A stretch of 38,566 nt of DNA, taken from Candidatus Parabeggiatoa sp. nov. 2. Its GTDB lineage: Bacteria > Pseudomonadota > Gammaproteobacteria > Beggiatoales > Beggiatoaceae. The position numbers and the translations under genes are program-made. The DNA lies in the NCBI GenBank assembly GCA_002085445.1, contig NBMI01000153.1, positions 1 through 38,566 of the forward strand, in the 5' to 3' direction. The notes below the pieces were generated by a model, which saw only the letters and a list, made by a program, of their open reading frames with translations, did no database searches and was not told where the DNA came from. Shown piece by piece: positions 15,418 through 38,183 of the stretch. Each line of letters starts with the position of its first letter. The stretch's first letter is position 1.

Positions 15418-15826
15418 GCCCGGGTGGCGAAATTTGGTAGACGCAAGGGACTTAAACTAATTTGAGCACCTAAGGCGAAATCTTTAGGTGAATGGAGTCT
15501 AATTCGGTGAAACCTGTCAAATGGCAACGCCGAGCTAAGCTCAATTCAGTAACAGGCTAGGGGTTCCCCTTTCCCTTTCCCTTTCCCCTTTCCCCTTTCC
15601 CATGGCCTTTTGCTGAGTTGAGAAAGTGTAGAGACCATACGGCTCCTGCCTTAGTAAATGCCTCTCTCCCCTGAAGGAAATTTTATAGGCAAAGACAGGG
15701 TCCAGACCACAAACACATCTATTAATTGATAAATGTCAATTGATAACGTGGCAGTGAAAGCTGTAGTTGGTAAGAAAATCCCTTGGTGGAGACACCGTAC
15801 CGGTTCGAGTCCGGTCCCGGGTACCA
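15418..15826 (+). tRNA. tRNA-Leu(UAA) split by a group I intron; exons 15418..15453 and 15775..15826
   Basis: 5' exon gcccgggtggcgaaatttggtagacgcaagggactt ends at U34. 3' exon aaaatcccttggtggagacaccgtaccggttcgagtccggtcccgggtacca restores the loop cttAAaa, a long variable arm, the T-arm and CCA. Confidence 0.85.
15454..15774 (+). ncRNA. Group I (IC3-like) self-splicing intron in the tRNA-Leu(UAA) anticodon loop
   Basis: Inserted between U34 and A35 and ends with G. Intron 5' end aaactaatttgagcacctaaggcgaaatctttaggtgaatgg, the P4/P5-like segment ggtgaaacctgtcaaatggcaacgccgagctaagctc and the P7-like segment gtagagaccatacgg closely parallel the cyanobacterial/plastid tRNA-Leu intron. Contains a (CCCTTT)n microsatellite at 15563..15601. 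Confidence 0.8.
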
Positions 15827-15902
15827 TTCATTTTCCCTCTTAATTATTTTCCTTCCTTAATTAAATGTGGGGACGGCAAACAAGAGTTGATAGATTATTC
15901 TA

Positions 15903-19839: not shown

Positions 19840-20460
19840 ATTGTTTATAATAAAAGATTACGCTTTTCAAAACGAATCGGCCTGTCGTTTTTATAAAAAT
19901 AACTACAAGGATTCGTTATAATAAGGGATTATCCTTGTTTATACAAAATCCGGTAATTATTTAAAGGATTACCCAATCCTTTCTTATCACGAATCGGCCT
20001 GTAGTTACAATAATAAACTACCCAATCCGCATCGATTAACGAATCGGCCTGTAGTTATAATAATAAATTCCCCAATCCGCATCGATTAACGAATCGGCCT
20101 GTCGTTTTTATAAAAATAACGACAGGGATTCGTTGCTTCTGAAGGTATTTTTCAATCAAGAATTCTCCATCCTTTCTTATAACGAATCCTTGTAGTTATA
20201 ATAAGAAATTCTCCCATCCGCATCGATTAACAAATCGGCCTGTAGTTACAATATAGATATTCAGATAATTAATTTAGTCTCCTTTAGGAGACTTGAGCTT
20301 TCAGACAATGTTGGCTGCGAAATACCCAATCCGCATCGATTAACGAATCTGCCTATAGTTACAATAAGAAATTACCCAATCCTTTCTTATAATGAATCGG
20401 CCTGTCGTTTTTAACAACAGCAATAACTACAAGGATTATTCATAATATCCTCCCAAGAGG
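19840..20460. repeat. About 620 bp of divergent intergenic space (flotillin <- -> hynS) built from iterated short units (acgaatcggcctgtagtt x6-7, ccaatccgcatcgattaac x4, ccaatcctttcttat x3) and the aactacaaggatt/aatccttgtagtt inverted-repeat element
   Basis: Direct counts of iterated strings; the same element family recurs at 25670..26040, 29940..29980 and 35145. Confidence 0.8.
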
Positions 20461-25639: not shown

Positions 25640-26040
25640 TACATCATTCGTTTATCCGCGTAATTAGTTGTACTCAAGCGCAATTAGTTGTAGTATATAT
25701 CAATAACTACAAGGATTCGTTATAAAAATGTATTTTTCATCCTTGCTTATATTCAATCCTTGTAGTTAGTTAATTCGTTTATCCGCGTAATTAGTTGTAC
25801 TCAAGCGTAATTAGTTGTACTCAAGCGCAATTAGTTGTACTCAAGATTAATCCGCCATACTCAATATCAATAACTACAAGGATTCGTTATAAAAAGGGAT
25901 TTTTCATCCTTGCTTATATGAAATCCTTGTAGTTAGTTAATTCGTTTATCCGCGTAATTAGTTGTACTCAAGCGTAATTAGTTGTACTCAAGCGTAATTA
26001 CTTGTACTCAATATTAATCCGTTGTACTCGATATCAATAA
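25640..26040. repeat. ~140-bp complex unit x3 (family B attcgtttatccgcgtaattagttgtactcaagcg... plus the aactacaaggatt ... aatccttgtagtt 13-bp-stem hairpin element)
   Basis: Three successive near-identical units read directly, starting 4 nt after the hynL stop. Confidence 0.85.
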
Positions 26041-29934: not shown

Positions 29935-30185
29935 ATAATAGACTTTAGACCGTTTTCATCCTTGCTTATATTCAATCCTTGTAGAGTACAACTAATTACG
30001 CGGATAAACGAATTAACGAGTGAAGTAAGTACAACTAATTACGCGGATAAACGAATTAACTAATGAAGTAAGTACAACTAATTACGCGGATAAACGAATT
30101 AACGAGTGAAGTACAACTAATTACGCGGATAAACGAATAAACAGGTGGATTGTGTCGCTCAATTCGTTTATTTCTCCATCAAAGT
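29935..30185. repeat. Tandem array of ~43-bp units (32-bp core gtacaactaattacgcggataaacgaattaac plus 7-11-bp linkers) x3.5, then a degenerate copy
   Basis: Read directly; the core is the family-B element. Confidence 0.85.
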
Positions 30186-30262: not shown

Positions 30263-30589
30263 ATGAGTACAATTCCTGTTATTGTTGACGAAGAAGCAGA
30301 AGCCAAACCAAAATCAGGCACACTGGGCGGTGGCAGACTTAGCCCTAAAAAAGGGGGGCGACTTAAACACATTGATACTGATGTGTTACGTGCTTCACTT
30401 GAGACACTTTCTACGCAGGTTGCTGAGATGTTACAGGATATTCAAAAAGAATTTGGCGGCTTCAAGCTCAAAGAAGTACAATTACAAGTTGAAGTGAATG
30501 CGGAAGGCGGTGTTGCGCTTATCGGTACGGCAAAAGCCGGCACTACTCGCGGCATTACCCTTACCTTTGCCACCGATTCAGATAAATAG
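30263..30589 (+). CDS. Small Trypco2-like (trypsin-co-occurring domain 2-like) protein, 108 aa
   Basis: C-terminal pattern FGGFKLKEVQLQVEVNAEGGVALIGTAKAGTTRGITLTF (alternating hydrophobic beta pattern with Gly-rich turn) resembles the Trypco2 domain of NTP-dependent conflict systems; RBS ggag. Confidence 0.55.
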   Translation: MSTIPVIVDEEAEAKPKSGTLGGGRLSPKKGGRLKHIDTDVLRASLETLSTQVAEMLQDIQKEFGGFKLKEVQLQVEVNAEGGVALIGTAKAGTTRGITLTFATDSDK

Positions 30590-31585
30590 CGCATCAAGCC
30601 GTCAATTCGTTATCCCTCAATTAGACTTGACACCGAACGAGGCAAAACTTTTTCGCTTAAAAAACGGATTCCGAGTTCACAATTTGCGCTTTTGTCATCT
30701 TATTGGGCGGTATACAGATTTCTCAAGTTCAAGTTCAAGTTCCCTCACTGAGTCGGGATCGTCTGGATCGTCCCCACTGACAAAAAAGCTTAAGGATGGC
30801 GATGCTCAGTATAAAACCTCCAAGGTTGATCTCGCTTGCGGAAGTTACTTCGTTTGATAAACCTCGGAGTTTGCCCGAATGAAATATGAAATATGAAATA
30901 TGAAAATTTGTAAATGACTAAATTGAACAATAATTCAATGACTTATTTCGCATGTTGGCTGTTTCACGAATTTAAAGTACGTTATGAGAAATGAAAAATG
31001 ACAAATTGTAAATAATGCGAATTAAGGGTTGAATTAATTATTATGAAATCAAGGATTTATAAAAACTTCTGATTGAGAAGTTATAGAAAAAATCTAACGC
31101 ACGCAAATGACGCTTGCATGCGCCGCGCATAATTTAGATATCTCTTGCGTCAAAGCGCGTCAAAGCGCGTTTATTTTATAGCCCATTCAATCGAGATGCT
31201 CTCGTTGTAATAAAACACCTACAAAAAGTCTGGCTAATGAGTTATTTCGCATGTTGGCCGTTTCACGATTTTAAAGTACGTTCCTTATGTAATATAACTC
31301 GTGGAGTTTCGCTCTCTCAGTGCAAGGCTTCAGCCTTGCACTTTACTTACAAACCAATGTACTATTGATAACTGATAACTAATATACTCAACATAGGCAT
31401 AACTTGGATTTCCTGGTAGATACACAGGCTATATTAATATCGCCCCGTTGGGGCTTTTCGTATTTTTGTTTCTCAAAAAGTCCTTTTCAGGCTAAAGTTT
31501 TTCTCCGAAAAACTTTATGAAAATTTGTTCCCTTCTTGGGTATAACTAATAATTTATCACAAATATTTGATAACTGATAACTGAC

Positions 31586-32074
31586 ATGCACCCACTCAGC
31601 GTTTTTATAGACGATCTCCGTCAAAAAGAAGACTGGTTTGTGCCCACGCTGCACGACTATCACCGTATTAATCTCGCATTACAAGCCGGGGGCGAATGGA
31701 AAATCACCCAATTGCGGGATATGTTAGCAGCCCTGTTAGTCAAAACGCCAGAGCAAGACATGATTTTTCAGCGGCGTTTTAAAGAATTTTTTTATCTGCA
31801 TGTTCCAGCGGAATTGAGTAAAGTGGATGTGCAACGTGCGCAGGATTTAGGCTCACCGTTTGAACAAACGAAAGTGCCCCTTGGACAACAAAATAATGAT
31901 CAACAAATATCCGAACCAAACCCTGTCAATGAGAATAAAAATTCATCAGGAACTGATGTCGGAGACTTAACGAGTCCAAGAGTCAAATGGTTTAAAAGAA
32001 AGTATGCCCTTTTAGGGCTAATAGGCATTACTTTTGGGTTTATTATTTGGTTAATCGTGTGGGTATTGACATGA
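31586..32074 (+). CDS. Hypothetical protein with C-terminal TM helix, 162 aa
   Basis: ORF with C-terminal helix ALLGLIGITFGFIIWLIVWVL; no recognisable domain; weak RBS. Confidence 0.4.
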   Translation: MHPLSVFIDDLRQKEDWFVPTLHDYHRINLALQAGGEWKITQLRDMLAALLVKTPEQDMIFQRRFKEFFYLHVPAELSKVDVQRAQDLGSPFEQTKVPLGQQNNDQQISEPNPVNENKNSSGTDVGDLTSPRVKWFKRKYALLGLIGITFGFIIWLIVWVLT

Positions 32075-32339
32075 ATACATTAGTTCTATCAACGAGCGCA
32101 TTCCCATTTTCCGGGTACTTTGTTAATAACGATGGCGATTATATTATCGATAAGGATTGATAAAAGTCAATTTTTCTGTTGAGTACTTGAGTACAACGAC
32201 ACAAGCGGGCCGATAAACGAATAATTAAAACGAGCTATTAGACATGAATGGTTCAATAAATGCTTCGGTTTTGTTCGCTTTTTGAGAAGAGGATTAATCG
32301 GTGGATTTTATTTAATTCTGATAAAGCAATATAGGCGTT

Positions 32340-32670
32340 CCAGAACGAAGTTTGGCGTTCCAGAACGAAGTTTCGTTGTACTAAATTCGTTAATCCGCGT
32401 AATTCGTTGTACTAAATTCGTTAATCCGCGTAATTCGTTGTACTAAATTCGTTAATCCACGTAATTCGTTGTACTTAATTCGTTAATCTGCGTAATTAGT
32501 TGTACTAAATTCGTTAATCCGCGTAATTCGTTGTACTAAATTCGTTAATCCACGTAATTCGTTGTACTCAATTCGTTTATCCGCGTAATTCGTTGTACTT
32601 AATTCGTTTAGGAGCAATATAGGCGTTCCATAACGAAGTTTGGCGTTCCATAACGAAGTTTTGTTGTACT
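32340..32670. repeat. 31-bp tandem array (ttcgttgtactaaattcgttaatccgcgtaa) x~7.5, flanked on both sides by a duplicated 23-bp doublet gcaatataggcgttccaKaacgaagttt
   Basis: Read directly; the array is 32384..32620. Confidence 0.9.
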
Positions 32671-32746
32671 TACTTAACCGTGAAAACGGAAATGCGCCCC
32701 TATCAACTCTTTACAAAATTATCTTGAGCCTCTAACGAGAGACAAC

Positions 32747-35017
32747 ATGGAAAACTTTTTATATATTGCTATTGCTATTGCTATCGCTATTGTTATCTCT
32801 ATTGCTAGAATTCGCTTGTTAGTTTTTATCAAATGGGCATGTGTGAAGCTACGACTATGCACACCTGAACAGGAAAATGTGGATCCGCCCCCACCCCCAC
32901 CTGATCAAACAATCGGCCCTAAGTGGAATAGTTCTAAGCCTCGTTTATTTTCATTAGGCAAAGTGGGGGGTAAGCCAAGTCCGCGTTTGTCGCCGCAGGT
33001 TTTGGATTCCTTAGCTCATTCAATGGGTTATTTTGACGATAGCCAAGGCCGTAAGCGGCTTGATATAAACAATACTATCAAAGCCAGTGTGCAAAAGGGC
33101 ATACCTGAATTGATTTATTATCCTGATAAACAACTACGCACCGTGCTGGTTTTAGAAGATGCGTTTGCTAAACCCTTACGCTGGAATCCCATTGCCAGCG
33201 AATTAGCCAAAGGACTCAAGCAACGCGGCATCTCTGTGTTGTATGGCAAATTTTACGGTTCACTCAACCAATTTAGTACACCGCAAAATCAACTTTACCA
33301 CTTGAAAGATTTAGAATGGGAAGCGCACTCTTATTTTCTTTTGATATTCAGTGATGGCAAAATATTAAATTACCATAGGGACAGTTCAACTTTAAAAGCA
33401 TTATCAAATTGGCCCAAAGTCGCTTGGATGGAACTACGCGAGCCTCGCTCATGGGATGAAAGTGCGGCCCTACCTAGCCACTTTGGTTTGCCTATTTACC
33501 CTGCGACTAGCGAGGGTTTATTACAAGTCATAGGCGGGTTTTTGAATGAAGACGAAACGCGGCCAGAGGATTTTAAACATCGGGCTATTAATGCCCGCGG
33601 AATACCACCACGATTAGGCCGTAATCTCAATACCTATGTAGAAGAATTATTAGGCGATGCGTTCCGTTGGGCGCAATGTTGTGCGCTGCTGCAACCGGTG
33701 AGTCTGGGATTGGCGGATGCGTTGCGCCGGAAGTTTTGCTCAAAATTACCAGCGGCGCGTATTGAACGGTTATTTATATTGCCCAATACCACTGAGACTG
33801 TTAATGGGTTATACTTTTCCAAACCCGTCTTAGCCGTTTTACGGGCTGCCTTTCAAAGACGCTTTAGTGAAAGCGAACAAGAACAAGTTCTAAGGTTTAT
33901 ATTAGAAAAACTCAAAGAAGTTGAACCAACAGATGAAGAAAGTCTGGCACATTTGGCATGGGAATGGCGTTGGCAACAAATTAAACTTGAACTTAATCCC
34001 GATGACGCTTTACAACAGCTTGAAGAACTAGCCGAAACGCCATTAGGGGATGCCATTCGGGCCGAATTACAAAACATTTCCCTACCACCTAAAAATGGCC
34101 TAATTACACCTAATCCTGAGCAGATTCCATTACGGCTTAGGCCTAAAACTGAAATCGCGTTGCAGCAGCTACAACATCTTACCGGACGTAATCTTCTCGA
34201 AGAATCAGAACAACCACTACCAGTAATCATTCTTCCCAAGAGGAGGTGGAAAACCTTCCGCGACAAACTGAAAGACGGCGGTAAGGGTCCAGAAATGGTG
34301 TGGATACCGGCCGGGCGGTTTCGTATGGGTGATATTCAGGGCGGTGGCCGTGATAATGAGCAACCCGTGCATGATATCTATGTAGGTAGCTTTGCGATGG
34401 GACGCTATCCGGTGACTTTTGCGGAGTATGACCGTTTTGCCAAAGCCACGGGTAGAGAAATACCCGATGATGAAGGTTGGGGGCGGGACAATCGCCCAGT
34501 GATTATTGTCTCTTGGTATGATGCAATCGCTTATACTGAATGGTTGACTCAACAAACTGGCAAACACTATCGCTTACCCACTGAAGCTGAGTGGGAATAT
34601 GCGGCACGAGCAAGAACGGAGACTAAGTATTGGTGGGGCGATGATATCGGCACTAATCGGGCTAATTGTTCGGGCAGTGGTAGTCGATTCAGTGGTAAAA
34701 AAACGGCTCCCGTGGGTTCTTTTAAACCTAATCCCTTTGGGTTATATGACACAGTGGGCAACGTTTGGGAATGGACGTGTTCAGAATATGAGGAAAAATA
34801 TCGTGGTAAGGAAACCGAATGCATAAGCAAAAATAATGCAAAAAATAATAAAAAGACTAAGCTCGTCTTTCGGGGCGGTAGCTTCCATAAGAATGAACGA
34901 CAGTGGAGAAAAATAGATTCTCGTTTGACGTACCGTGGCAAAACCGAGCCGTATAAGGTCTTCCAAAATTTAGGCTTTCGGATTGTTAGGGTATATACGG
35001 AGAAGACTGAAAACTAG
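32747..35017 (+). CDS. Membrane protein with poly-Pro linker, a central domain of unknown function and a C-terminal FGE-sulfatase (SUMF1/FGS) domain
   Basis: N-terminal TM helix (encoded partly by a (GCTATT)n repeat), then PPPPPPD. C-terminal EMVWIPAGRFRMGD...NEQPVHDIYVGSFAMGRYPVTFAEYDRF...VSWYDAIAYTEWL...RLPTEAEWEYAAR...GNVWEWTCSEY...RGGSF...RLTYRG matches the FGE-sulfatase fold signature. Confidence 0.8.
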   Translation: MENFLYIAIAIAIAIVISIARIRLLVFIKWACVKLRLCTPEQENVDPPPPPPDQTIGPKWNSSKPRLFSLGKVGGKPSPRLSPQVLDSLAHSMGYFDDSQGRKRLDINNTIKASVQKGIPELIYYPDKQLRTVLVLEDAFAKPLRWNPIASELAKGLKQRGISVLYGKFYGSLNQFSTPQNQLYHLKDLEWEAHSYFLLIFSDGKILNYHRDSSTLKALSNWPKVAWMELREPRSWDESAALPSHFGLPIYPATSEGLLQVIGGFLNEDETRPEDFKHRAINARGIPPRLGRNLNTYVEELLGDAFRWAQCCALLQPVSLGLADALRRKFCSKLPAARIERLFILPNTTETVNGLYFSKPVLAVLRAAFQRRFSESEQEQVLRFILEKLKEVEPTDEESLAHLAWEWRWQQIKLELNPDDALQQLEELAETPLGDAIRAELQNISLPPKNGLITPNPEQIPLRLRPKTEIALQQLQHLTGRNLLEESEQPLPVIILPKRRWKTFRDKLKDGGKGPEMVWIPAGRFRMGDIQGGGRDNEQPVHDIYVGSFAMGRYPVTFAEYDRFAKATGREIPDDEGWGRDNRPVIIVSWYDAIAYTEWLTQQTGKHYRLPTEAEWEYAARARTETKYWWGDDIGTNRANCSGSGSRFSGKKTAPVGSFKPNPFGLYDTVGNVWEWTCSEYEEKYRGKETECISKNNAKNNKKTKLVFRGGSFHKNERQWRKIDSRLTYRGKTEPYKVFQNLGFRIVRVYTEKTEN

Positions 35018-35297
35018 ACGTATACTGAACCTAAGTACAGAAAAAAAATTTACGCGTCATTGTAATTACTTTTTTTTATTGATTATATCAGTAATATACC
35101 TTATATAAAACTTATCAATCGATGATCAAGTTTTTAGTCTTCCAACCATAACTACAAGGATTGTATATAAGAAGGGATTTCTTATAACAAATTTCTGAGA
35201 AATTTTTAAGTAAGAAATCGAATCGATATGAGAGATATCAATTATCTCACCTAAGTCTAAATTTAGACTCTAAAAAATGAATGTCGAAAGTTTGGAG

Positions 35298-36123
35298 GTT
35301 TTCACTCGATGATCAAGTTTTTAGTCTGACAATGCACAAGGATTGTATATAATAAGGGATTTTAGAAACTAGCAGATAGGAAACTCAAATACTAAACCCT
35401 AAAAATCCGTTTATTCCCTTTCATCCTAAGTACTTTCAGTCTAAGTGCCATTAGACCCAAAACCCTCATTTTTCCCATCCCCTATCCCCACGAAGGTGAG
35501 GGGCCTTTTAACTACAACTGTGGGCCAGGTTTTGAAATGATAAGCCTTGGTTTTGTTAATGGCCCTCAATTGGCAAAGCCATTTATTAGATGGGCATAAA
35601 TTGGCAAAAGCATCGATCCGAAGTTCTTCGCTCAGTCTAACGCTTGATGGTTAAAATACAACTGTGGGCCAGGTTTTGAAATGATAAGCCTTGGTTTTGT
35701 TGATGGCCCTCAATTCAAAGGCCGTTTATTAGACATGCAGACGACCAACGCTTGGCCGAAATTGGCAAAGCCATCGATCCGAAGTTCTTCGCTTTCGCGT
35801 TGATTGTTACAGCAAACCGAGAGATTGATTACCACCGTTTAGTAAGTTCTTGCGGCTCAGGTATTTAACCTTTGGCAACTTGAATGAGGCCTTCTTGGTG
35901 ATGGCAACGTTGCCTTTTGCGTTTAAAGGTGGCTTTTGGCTAATCTTCTTGTTAGGCGAAAAACTTGATCATCGAATGAAATCAAATCTCCATTAATTAG
36001 CTATTCCCTTATCATTGCTGTATTTTAAAAAAGTTGACTGAGGTGATTTGATGCTCGTTTCGATAATCCCTTATTATATACAATCCTTGTGCATTGTCAG
36101 ACTAAAAACTTGATCATCGAGTC
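35298..36123. mobile_element. MITE-like non-autonomous element, ~826 bp, with perfect 57-bp terminal inverted repeats and no ORF
   Basis: 35298..35354 ctcgatgatcaagtttttagtctgacaatgcacaaggattgtatataataagggatt is the exact reverse complement of 36067..36123. Internal ~150-bp tandem duplication (35510..35620 / 35660..35800). A partial left-end copy lies at 35110..35175. Confidence 0.7.
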
Positions 36124-36127
36124 AAAT

Positions 36128-36180
36128 AGTTACGTCGGCAAAAGTTTCGCGGAGCGAAACTTTTGCCGACGTTGGATGTT
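36128..36180 (+). terminator. Strong hairpin (terminator-like) related to the 9364 hairpin
   Basis: cgtcggcaaaagtttcgc-ggag-cgaaacttttgccgacg, 18-bp stem, followed by ttggatgtttt. Confidence 0.5.
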
Positions 36181-36296
36181 TTCAAATTAAACACTAATGC
36201 AATTAGCCGGCCTTTTAAAAAAAATAGCCGGCCTTATTGAAAAATGACCATCACTTGTGATATAAAATTAAATTCTTTTTGTGATGAGGAAAAAAT

Positions 36297-38183
36297 ATGG
36301 CAAACACCGTTCGGTATTTTCTGGAAATTAAAAAAGATAACAAGGGTGCTTATCGGTGTTGGATTCATCAAGGCGAGCAGCATAATGCTTTTGGCGATTT
36401 AAAAAATTTGCGACTAAAACCAAACAGTCGCGTCGAGATTAAAGGTAAAAAAATAACCCTCAAAAGGTTAGTTGAAGAACTCATTACTTTTGATTACAAC
36501 GACGAAGAGCAGGCTAGGCTGAAATTGAAATTTGATGAACGCGAACAATCAGACATTGGGCAACATCTCTTTGATGAAACCTTTGGCAAACTGAAATCAT
36601 CTATTTATAACGAAATTTTAAGGTATGAACAAAAAGAGGTTCGCATTTTATGCACCGATGAACATATTGCTCGTTTGCCTTGGGTGTTACTCTCAGATCG
36701 TGGAGAATTCTTATCGGCTGCGGGTTGGTCTATAGCGCTTCAAACAGAGGCAACAACGGAAGCAGAGGTAGAATTGCCACCACATCCTAAAATGTTGATA
36801 ATCGCTCCCCAACCTGAAGACGTGGCAGACACCGAAGCAGATGTCCATGTCACAGAGTTGCGTGACTTATTATCATGGCCTGAAAGCGTAGAAACCTGTC
36901 TCCAAGTTGCGTCCACATGGGAAGAATTCAAAACCAAAGTGAAATCCTTAGAACCGGACATCGTATATTACTATGGCCATGGTGAAGGTGACATTAATAC
37001 CACTCACTTGCTGTTCGCAGACCAAACGCAGCAATGTTGCAAAATACCAGTTGCTGATTTTGCTCAGGTATTACGCAACCTACCGAAAAGGCCCTCACTG
37101 GCTTACATCAATTGTTGTCAAGGTGATACTGGGGGTTGGTTAGGCGTTGGGCGACAATTAGGGAAATTTATCCCCGCTGTTCTCACCAATAGCACGGTGG
37201 CATGGATTGATGCCGCACGCGCTCAAGCAAGCGCGTTCTGGCGTGGACTCTTGAAAGAAGGATTGACACCCCATGAATCCGTTTCTGGGATGCGTCGTCG
37301 CTTGGTTGATGACAATACGAGCTTTGGTGATGCACGTTGGATGACACCTGTGTTGCACTGCCATTATCACAACTGGAAAACCAATCTTCCTAGCCCGACT
37401 AATTGGCTTGAACGCGAGCCGTTATGGCGGCTAAAACTAGACCGTATCAAACAAGTCAGTGAAATATTTTACCAAATCAGTGAAATGATTGAAGTAAATC
37501 TACCTTCACTGGCCTATATTTGGTATGGTAAAACGGGACAAGGTGTAGAAATTTTCCATGAACGTTTGGAGTTGGAACTCAGCAAAAAGTTGGCTTACAA
37601 GGTAAAAACCATCAAACCCTCATGGCATAAAAACTTCGTAGAAACCATCAAACCCTCGTGGCCTGACGATTTTGCACATGTTCACCGCTCCTTTAACGAT
37701 ATGTATCGTGAATGCTTTAAAGTGAATGCTTTGGAAGACATTCCTTATTGTATTCAAAAGCATCCAAATGCTGGTACGATCCTATATGTTTGTCATCAGC
37801 AACCTATTTCACCTTCAGACATTAATGAAACGCGTCTGAAAAGATACCTAACCTGGTGGGACACTAAGATCATTCCCATTTTAAAGCAGGCTAATATCTA
37901 TGGCTTACTTGGTATTTCTTTTATAGTGGATGACACAGCCCAATTCAAAACTCAATTCTCGCAAGCACTTGACACGTTAACTTTATCCAATACCGTGTTC
38001 AGATTATTAGACGAATTGGGCGATGTGCTCCCAGAAGAAGTAGAACTTTTCTTAAAGTTTAATAAGATTCCGGTGCCTAATGATGACAAAAAAGACTTAT
38101 TAAACGACATTATGCGAGAAACTAACGGCCAGTATGAAAAGACGTTGGAACAACTCAAGGCGCTCGTCAATAATCTTGCTTAA
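36297..38183 (+). CDS. CHAT-domain (caspase-like) protease, 628 aa
   Basis: CHAT-type catalytic dyad contexts PDIVYYYGHGEGD (His) and LAYINCCQGDTGG (Cys); upstream LPWVLLSDRGEFLSAAGWSI; N- and C-terminal regions are unassigned. Confidence 0.8.
   Translation: MANTVRYFLEIKKDNKGAYRCWIHQGEQHNAFGDLKNLRLKPNSRVEIKGKKITLKRLVEELITFDYNDEEQARLKLKFDEREQSDIGQHLFDETFGKLKSSIYNEILRYEQKEVRILCTDEHIARLPWVLLSDRGEFLSAAGWSIALQTEATTEAEVELPPHPKMLIIAPQPEDVADTEADVHVTELRDLLSWPESVETCLQVASTWEEFKTKVKSLEPDIVYYYGHGEGDINTTHLLFADQTQQCCKIPVADFAQVLRNLPKRPSLAYINCCQGDTGGWLGVGRQLGKFIPAVLTNSTVAWIDAARAQASAFWRGLLKEGLTPHESVSGMRRRLVDDNTSFGDARWMTPVLHCHYHNWKTNLPSPTNWLEREPLWRLKLDRIKQVSEIFYQISEMIEVNLPSLAYIWYGKTGQGVEIFHERLELELSKKLAYKVKTIKPSWHKNFVETIKPSWPDDFAHVHRSFNDMYRECFKVNALEDIPYCIQKHPNAGTILYVCHQQPISPSDINETRLKRYLTWWDTKIIPILKQANIYGLLGISFIVDDTAQFKTQFSQALDTLTLSNTVFRLLDELGDVLPEEVELFLKFNKIPVPNDDKKDLLNDIMRETNGQYEKTLEQLKALVNNLA

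Follow-up and report, generated by a model that had tools for sequence, protein, structure and literature searches.

The window, a 38,566-nt stretch of contig NBMI01000153.1 from Candidatus Parabeggiatoa sp. nov. 2, has near its right end an intergenic gap of 1279 bp (1.28 kb), with an FGE-sulfatase-domain gene to the left and a gene for a 628-aa protein, of no assigned function, to the right (Table 1). The gap holds a long inverted repeat: a repeat search of the window gave arms of 75 nt that are 95% complementary (35300-35374 and 36052-36126), and sequence reading and a script found a run of perfect complementarity of 58 nt (35304-35361 versus 36065-36122). The element proper is the 817 bp from 35305 to 36121, within which fall 57 nt of the perfect run (arms 35305-35361 and 36065-36121). 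An earlier note on this DNA had described the feature as a MITE at 35298-36123 with exact 57-bp reverse-complement ends: the exact ends were recovered by reading and script alike and the inverted repeat stands, with outer limits that had been drawn a few bases too wide. The partial third left-end copy that it placed upstream is also present (35118-35180, 187 bp upstream), and to the three end copies that it had seen must be added a fourth, on the minus strand at 35959-35976, that it overlooked. The outer motif TCGATGATCAAGTTTTT has four copies in the window, all confined to the gap; the four end copies are here called L1, L2, R1 and R2, and three-digit names such as L007 or L035 denote other loci or contigs.

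Table 1. Features in and around the intergenic gap (window coordinates)
Feature	Position	Strand	Description or basis
FGE-sulfatase-domain gene	32747-35017		left neighbour of gap
Truncated MITE "A"	35118-35289	+	terminus ATCGATGATCAAGTTTTT at 35118-35135, subterminal ACTACAAGGATT module, interior; right end missing
TCGATGATCAAGTTTTT copy L1	35119	+	motif search
"L2", left arm, solo a-type MITE end	35305-35374	+	terminal 18-mer CTCGATGATCAAGTTTTT at 35305-35322
TCGATGATCAAGTTTTT copy L2	35306	+	motif search
Fragment of a different short interspersed repeat, CTAGCAGATA...AAAATCCGTTTATTCC	35371-35417	+	sequence matches
Imperfect two-copy tandem duplication	35507-35800	+	copies approximately 35507-35650 and 35651-35800
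34-codon CusA/CzcA-like stretch	35856-35957	+	weak match to RND pump transmembrane residues 893-926
TCGATGATCAAGTTTTT copy R1	35954-35975	-	motif search
"R1", b-type MITE end	35959-35976	-	terminus TTCGATGATCAAGTTTTT, motif search; right flank TGAAA
"Y", interior of MITE "B"	35977-36051	-	contiguous with R2; aligns with intact MITE L097
"R2", right arm, a-type end of MITE "B"	36052-36121	-	terminal 18-mer at 36104-36121
TCGATGATCAAGTTTTT copy R2	36099-36120	-	motif search
628-aa gene	36297-38183		right neighbour of gap

The genes of 30263-38183 encode a Pepco-domain protein (30263-30589), the FGE-sulfatase-domain protein (756 aa) and the 628-aa protein, which has only faint iSTAND similarity. 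The nearest non-identical homologue of the last is only 59% identical, and homologues at or below that identity have a scattered distribution among Desulfobacterota, cable bacteria and other groups, in some cases as fusions to TIR or CHAT domains; these neighbours look like a conflict or defence system. Elsewhere in the window, at 15418-15838, a split tRNA-Leu(UAA) gene encloses an Rfam group I intron match (15444-15724) and has two tRNA-Gly genes and one tRNA-Cys gene as neighbours; excising approximately 15453-15775 lets ARAGORN call a tRNA-Leu(taa). The intron position is the classic one of cyanobacteria and plastids, here in a gammaproteobacterial giant sulfur bacterium.

Read from left to right, the gap is a mosaic of parts of different elements. 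MITE A, with left flank TATCA at L1, aligns at approximately 93% identity with the left-hand ~175 bp of L035 3726-3965, a two-ended element of 240 bp, and the homology ends at about 35289, where that element runs on into its b-type right end. L2 is flanked on the left by TTTCA (35300-35304), and its likeness to canonical a-ends stops at about 35374; the interspersed-repeat piece there matches window 14369-14322 (83%) and L097 4794-4840 (87%). The ~150-bp interior tandem duplication of the earlier note is real, if imperfect, and was not called by Tandem Repeats Finder: its better blocks are 95% (35507-35571 versus 35651-35715) and 90% identical (35593-35632 versus 35754-35793), and overall identity is ~79% across 145 nt with gaps, for a unit of about 145-160 bp. 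Nothing similar to this duplication was found elsewhere among the loci compared. R1, read in the longer allele described below (154 bp restored), continues as ...TTTTTTCGTGCGCCCAAAC, the b-type signature. Y can be aligned to interior sequence of L097 2620-2884, an intact MITE of 265 bp with the target duplication TAATA, and also to L148, L099, L030, L077 and L124; Y and R2 together (35977-36121) align with the right ~150 bp of the same intact MITE, and the R1 terminus abuts the exact start of this homology. R2 has the right flank TCAAA (36122-36126). Ten nt to the right of R2, positions 36132-36172 form a perfect palindrome of 41 nt, with a stem of 19 bp and a loop of 3 nt, and a T-rich tail comes next; this is a separate interspersed repeat, found as well in L077, L125, L097, L103, L064, L035 and L086.

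The 817-bp unit has terminal inverted repeats (57-58 nt, perfect) and the small size without a transposase gene expected of a MITE. The longest interior ORF is of 48 aa, so that the interior can, as the earlier note had it, be called free of ORFs in the window; in the commoner allele elsewhere, 154 bp longer, the minus strand has an ORF of 110 aa, for which Pfam, NCBIfam, PDB and a 5.8-billion-protein search returned no homologue. A coding interior was rejected, all plausible conceptual translations being without a significant homologue in the same four resources. The CusA/CzcA-like stretch scored E=0.003 against CusA in PDB, E=0.0013 against NCBIfam TIGR00914 and E=0.31 against Pfam ACR_tran; it may be the relic of an RND pump gene, but the 5.8-billion-protein search gave no significant match to it, so the evidence is weak. 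A structured RNA was likewise considered, and Rfam returned nothing relevant at the locus at either gathering or E-value thresholds.

The arms of the inverted repeat are genuine ends belonging to an IS/MITE family of IS701-like kind. When one genome per species was scanned for the outer motif with ACAAGGATT directly after it, 19 loci were found, all in five Beggiatoaceae MAGs, each of which holds several copies of the family (three to five loci per MAG). Many of the matches are inverted pairs 170-310 bp apart; with the element boundary set at CTCGATG.../...CATCGAG, identical 5-bp direct repeats flank eight of 11 inverted pairs, and two-ended Beggiatoaceae copies of 172-274 bp have perfect 5-bp duplications. 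Intact Beggiatoaceae members are 170-310 bp long and have one a-type end, reading ...TTTTT(A/C)GTCTGACAA..., and one b-type end, reading ...TTTT(T/C)TCGT(G/T)...CCCAAAC...; beside each end is a lineage-specific module, ACTACAAGGATT-N4-TATAA-N2-AGGGATT.

A second scan, of metagenomes for the 18-mer CTCGATGATCAAGTTTTT, returned at least 120 loci, and among the matches listed the 18-mer adjoins a transposase ORF of 468-498 aa in 23 of 120. This ORF scores 30.9-43.9 bits against Pfam DDE_5, above the gathering cut-off of 27; its best NCBIfam matches are IS701 models, at 60-84 bits versus cut-offs of 150-170, and the transposase is therefore a distinct branch. Complete transposase-bearing elements are 1.55-1.75 kb long and are bounded by the 18-mer, inverted at both ends (L061, L091, L114, L135, L137 and L152, in the last of which the transposase ORF extends into the right end); full-length L135 and L137 are flanked by the perfect 5-bp duplications TTTAA and TTAAA, respectively. 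Among the matches listed, 28 of 51 unique short pairs (74-340 bp) also have a perfect 5-bp duplication, and the consensus of the duplicated target is TNNNA (T at position 1 in 29/30, A at position 5 in 28/30). The transposases are mutually only 45-62% identical and the host G+C ranges over 0.33-0.67, yet the 18-bp terminus is invariant. The chance, which the earlier note had named as fatal to its own reading, that the terminal repeat is single-copy and without a related transposon therefore fails: the 18-mer occurs in five Beggiatoaceae genomes and bounds transposase-bearing IS.

No transposase of the family was found in ~170 kb of Beggiatoaceae loci, and cluster and context look-ups placed no copy of it on a demonstrably Beggiatoaceae contig. 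For L152, recovered from a Guaymas sample in which Parabeggiatoa contigs are also present, the closest named relatives are Deltaproteobacteria MAGs. An enzyme of the family presumably acts, or has acted, in Parabeggiatoa.

Two further observations concern the ends. The invariant terminus CTCGATGATCAAG (e.g., 35305-35322) holds a GATC site (TGATCA); in IS10 and IS50, Dam methylation at GATC sites in the ends regulates transposition. At several loci (L017 1787-1825, L019 1987-2025, L022, L031 and others) perfect ~40-bp palindromes, for example TTCGAGGTTCAAGTTTTT-N5-AAAAACTTGAACCTCGAA, are inserted in the MITE inner module, each arm matching the IS terminus CTCGATGATCAAGTTTTT at 15/18 positions. 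The palindromes may be minimal MITEs of a sister IS.

IS701-family DDE_5 transposases go by the name "SRSO17 transposase" in COG and IMG, and the target duplication of the family is typically 4 bp, or 5 bp in some sub-groups. Like IS701-family IS, the elements described here encode one DDE_5 transposase, in an ORF of ~470-500 aa, between short inverted repeats at their termini, and duplicate a short AT-rich target, in this case 5 bp at TNNNA; they differ in scoring far under the NCBIfam cut-off and in keeping a constant terminus across transposases only 45-62% identical. Within the same host family, Beggiatoaceae, the MITEs of Candidatus Thiomargarita nelsonii are abundant, small, bounded by inverted repeats and intergenic or even within introns (Flood et al., 2016; PMC4853749); no parent IS was identified for them, and one ends in the 5-bp direct repeat TATAG (PMC4853749). 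For the present MITEs, unlike these, a parent IS family can be proposed. The supplementary text of PMC4853749 contains neither their terminal motif nor their inner module, and the family motifs are absent from the text of PMC4679880. IS701-like DDE_5 elements and Beggiatoaceae MITEs are already known kinds, and the present family is new, or at least here newly delineated.

Both arms also contain promoter-like sequence. CTGACA-N16-TATAAT, facing inward, is found in L2 at 35326-35353 and in R2 at 36100-36073, in each case with 11/12 matches to sigma-70-like hexamers, and the full-length ISs have a TTGACA-like hexamer at the same distance from both termini; from its position, the hexamer may be part of the transposase-binding end or of a transposase promoter. 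Correia elements of Neisseria are also MITEs with promoter-like hexamers in their inverted repeats (PMC4853749), and the present arms are like them in this respect but unrelated in sequence and with their promoter-like sites facing inward. The TNNNA duplication is also a different one: Correia elements duplicate TA.

The core of the inverted repeat does recur in the hairpin elements of the window, as the earlier note had observed: ACAAGGATTGTATATAA has 11 matches in the window at no more than three mismatches, versus 0.11 expected. What the hairpin elements have in common with the MITEs is only the inner module, ACTACAAGGATT-N4-TATAA-N2-A(A/G)GGAT; the IS terminus is in none of them, at up to three mismatches, so that they are not mobilisable through those termini, and the idea that they are MITE remnants finds no support in that form. 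The module follows a terminus in one of its 10 copies in the window, in 31 of 66 in the Beggiatoaceae sample, which was itself selected for such pairs, and, in the unbiased metagenome scan, after only 20 of 130 unique exact termini among the matches listed. All but one of these 20 (the exception is L151) are from the contig series that dominates the Guaymas-type matches. The module is thus a lineage-specific repeat that joined the local MITEs, or the reverse.

A more far-reaching idea, which we consider unlikely, is that the inner module of the a-end (ACAAGGATTGTATATAAT), with the upstream CTGACA, is a working portable promoter, spread among Beggiatoaceae genomes by the MITE family and, independently of it, as hairpin elements. 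If so, a unit bracketed by two a-ends would yield convergent transcripts across its interior, and could also be a mobilisable composite with captured host DNA. Hairpin modules at 20429 and at 29966-29982 (minus strand) point to a hydrogenase small-subunit gene and a MscS-like gene, respectively, from 40-50 nt upstream. Dense arrays of short tandem and interspersed repeats occupy 19840-20450, 25640-26040 and 29960-30140, around hydrogenase and MscS-like genes, with units of ~50 bp containing CGAATCGGCCTGTAGTTA and of 21 bp containing GCGTAATTAGTTGTACTCAAG.

The same locus is present in many Guaymas-type metagenome assemblies, and those that span the gap all agree in how the four ends are ordered and oriented; at least eight assemblies, made independently with different assemblers, share the structure with 99.7-100% identity over the whole gap. 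Most other assemblies carry 154 bp more at window 35959/35960 (L002 8842-8995), which makes the window a deletion allele; one assembly (L001) has 51 bp more than the window and so falls 103 bp short of the long allele. Three length alleles thus segregate, the full one and those shorter by 103 bp (L001) and by 154 bp (the window), and both deletions have a common left boundary, after ...CTTGTTAGGCG. In the undeleted allele there is one more interspersed motif, AGCGCAATTTGTGCCGGTG..., which is also in L053, L107 and L124.

The close alleles all carry four ends, haplotype L007 excepted. This has one copy of the duplication unit, the segment of 154 bp, R1, Y and R2, with the 628-aa gene downstream; to the left of the equivalent of 35664 (L007 1-466) the DNA is unrelated and ends in a gltX-like gene, and L1, L2 and the FGE-sulfatase gene are all absent. 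Its identity to the window is 96% over 35664-35959 and 100% from 35959 onward, a step that points to recombination between strains. L007 need not be an older state: it may have been rearranged later, or its contig may be chimeric.

Is the 817-bp unit an element in its own right? The flanks, which the earlier note had proposed to check for a target duplication, read TTTCA and TCAAA, so that the unit lacks the family-typical 5-bp duplication, and no pairing of the flanks of the four ends (TATCA, TTTCA, TGAAA, TCAAA) yields one. The lack of a duplication is in itself weak evidence, since 45% of the sampled short pairs also have no perfect one. The architecture of the ends is a second difference: L2 and R2 are both a-type, the sole b-type end at the locus being R1, whereas the family pairs one a-end with one b-end. 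A third is that the two arms are too much alike. Duplication-flanked members have a perfect inverted-repeat run of 2-19 nt, versus 57-58 nt in the 817-bp unit, and an ungapped end-to-end identity over 75 nt of 0.37-0.61, versus 0.92. L2 and R2 share an a-subtype, AGTCTGACAATGCACAAGGATTGTATATAATAAGGGATT, that recurs unchanged at six further loci (L048, L077, L097, L107, L131 and L148), the flanks differing each time, and the perfect 57-bp identity of the arms is due to L2 and R2 being two copies of one recently amplified end subtype. Nor is the whole unit multicopy among the matches listed, where the remaining interior is absent from 139 other terminus-carrying loci; a second copy of the whole unit could exist beyond the at least 120 listed metagenome loci.

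These observations are best accommodated if the 1.28-kb gap is a graveyard or mosaic of pieces of the non-autonomous MITE family and of other short Beggiatoaceae repeats, which we regard as probable. The family derives from, and is presumably moved by, an IS701-like DDE_5 transposase, which would recognise termini of ~18-30 bp (CTCGATGATCAAGTTTTT...TTGACA-like) and insert by a 5-bp staggered cut at TNNNA sites; the short elements with one a-end and one b-end would be moved by it in trans. At this locus at least three insertions would have occurred and later been truncated or rearranged by deletion or recombination, leaving the left end and interior of MITE A (35118-35289), the solo a-type end L2, and MITE B, that is, Y and R2 (interior and a-type end), abutted by the b-type terminus R1. 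L2 and R2 are, by chance, inverted copies of the same a-end subtype and so form the perfect 57-bp inverted repeat, with ~680 bp of unrelated non-coding DNA between them; deletion alleles are presumably still segregating. The L2-R2 unit would then be a by-product and not a mobile entity. We infer in the same way the order of these events and that the unit itself never moved. One detail tells against this reading: TTTCA, to the left of L2, and TGAAA, to the right of R1, are reverse complements of each other, and of the stepwise histories considered (nested insertion, inversion between copies, intramolecular transposition) none fits the four flanks.

The alternative that comes nearest to this mosaic is a composite transposon of "Pack-MITE" type, in which two separately inserted, inverted a-ends bracket host DNA and can be mobilised jointly, as two IS copies can. 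Many DDE transposases accept two identical ends, as in IS10 and IS50, and by analogy the same might hold here; both termini are intact and inverted, and the interior, which does not belong to the family, may include the relic of a gene. L2 and R2 each retain an intact terminal 18-mer in the right orientation, so that mobilisation of the unit is still conceivable in principle. The likeness to compound transposons is that two inverted copies of one transposon end bracket unrelated DNA, but the brackets are solo ends of ~70 bp rather than complete IS, and nothing suggests that the unit ever moved, with neither a duplication nor another copy among the matches listed; moreover, all inspected duplication-flanked members are of a/b type and none is a/a. 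A composite is thus unlikely.

Less probable again, and by a good way improbable, is the reading of the earlier note, a single intact MITE, unusually large at 817 bp, that recently transposed here as a unit. The mobility of the end family is genuine, and a perfect 57-bp inverted repeat with terminal 18-mers intact and rightly oriented and no long ORF within is what might be expected of it, but the 5-bp duplication is absent, both ends are a-type, unlike those of all intact relatives, and the unit is three to four times the usual size. Within it lie an additional b-type terminus and parts of two other elements, no second copy is found among the matches listed, and its left arm is missing in haplotype L007. 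With its parts coming from different elements, 35298-36123 is not to be described as one recently moved MITE.

An invertible DNA switch, in which a recombinase would flip the segment and so reorient promoter-like sequences relative to the 628-aa gene, is suggested by the long inverted repeats directly upstream of that gene and the near-consensus sigma-70-like hexamers in both arms, but hardly deserves credence: the arms are demonstrably transposon ends, and because both promoter-like sites face inward, inversion would aim neither at the gene. An inverton would also be expected to occur in both orientations and near an invertase; all spanning assemblies have a single orientation, and the neighbouring genes include no invertase or recombinase. 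An assembly artefact, with repeat copies wrongly joined, is brought to mind by the many contigs that end inside the region, as is usual at repeats, and can be given equally little weight, the identical structure in at least eight independent assemblies (JGI, ENA and NCBI, with MEGAHIT- and SPAdes-style names; 99.7-100% identity) excluding it and showing no sign of inversion.

Recurrent ORFs beside the ends were looked for in the Beggiatoaceae loci, and none was found. For scans of other genomes the locus offers a caution: a long perfect inverted repeat may be two independent copies of a recently amplified transposon end, and does not by itself prove that one mobile unit is present. It also explains why assemblies of giant sulfur bacteria break in such intergenic regions. 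For annotation, a Beggiatoaceae MITE family can now be tied to a candidate parent IS701-like IS, an 18-bp terminus and a 5-bp TNNNA duplication, and the locus itself is ordinary genome clutter of a giant sulfur bacterium rather than a freshly moved element.
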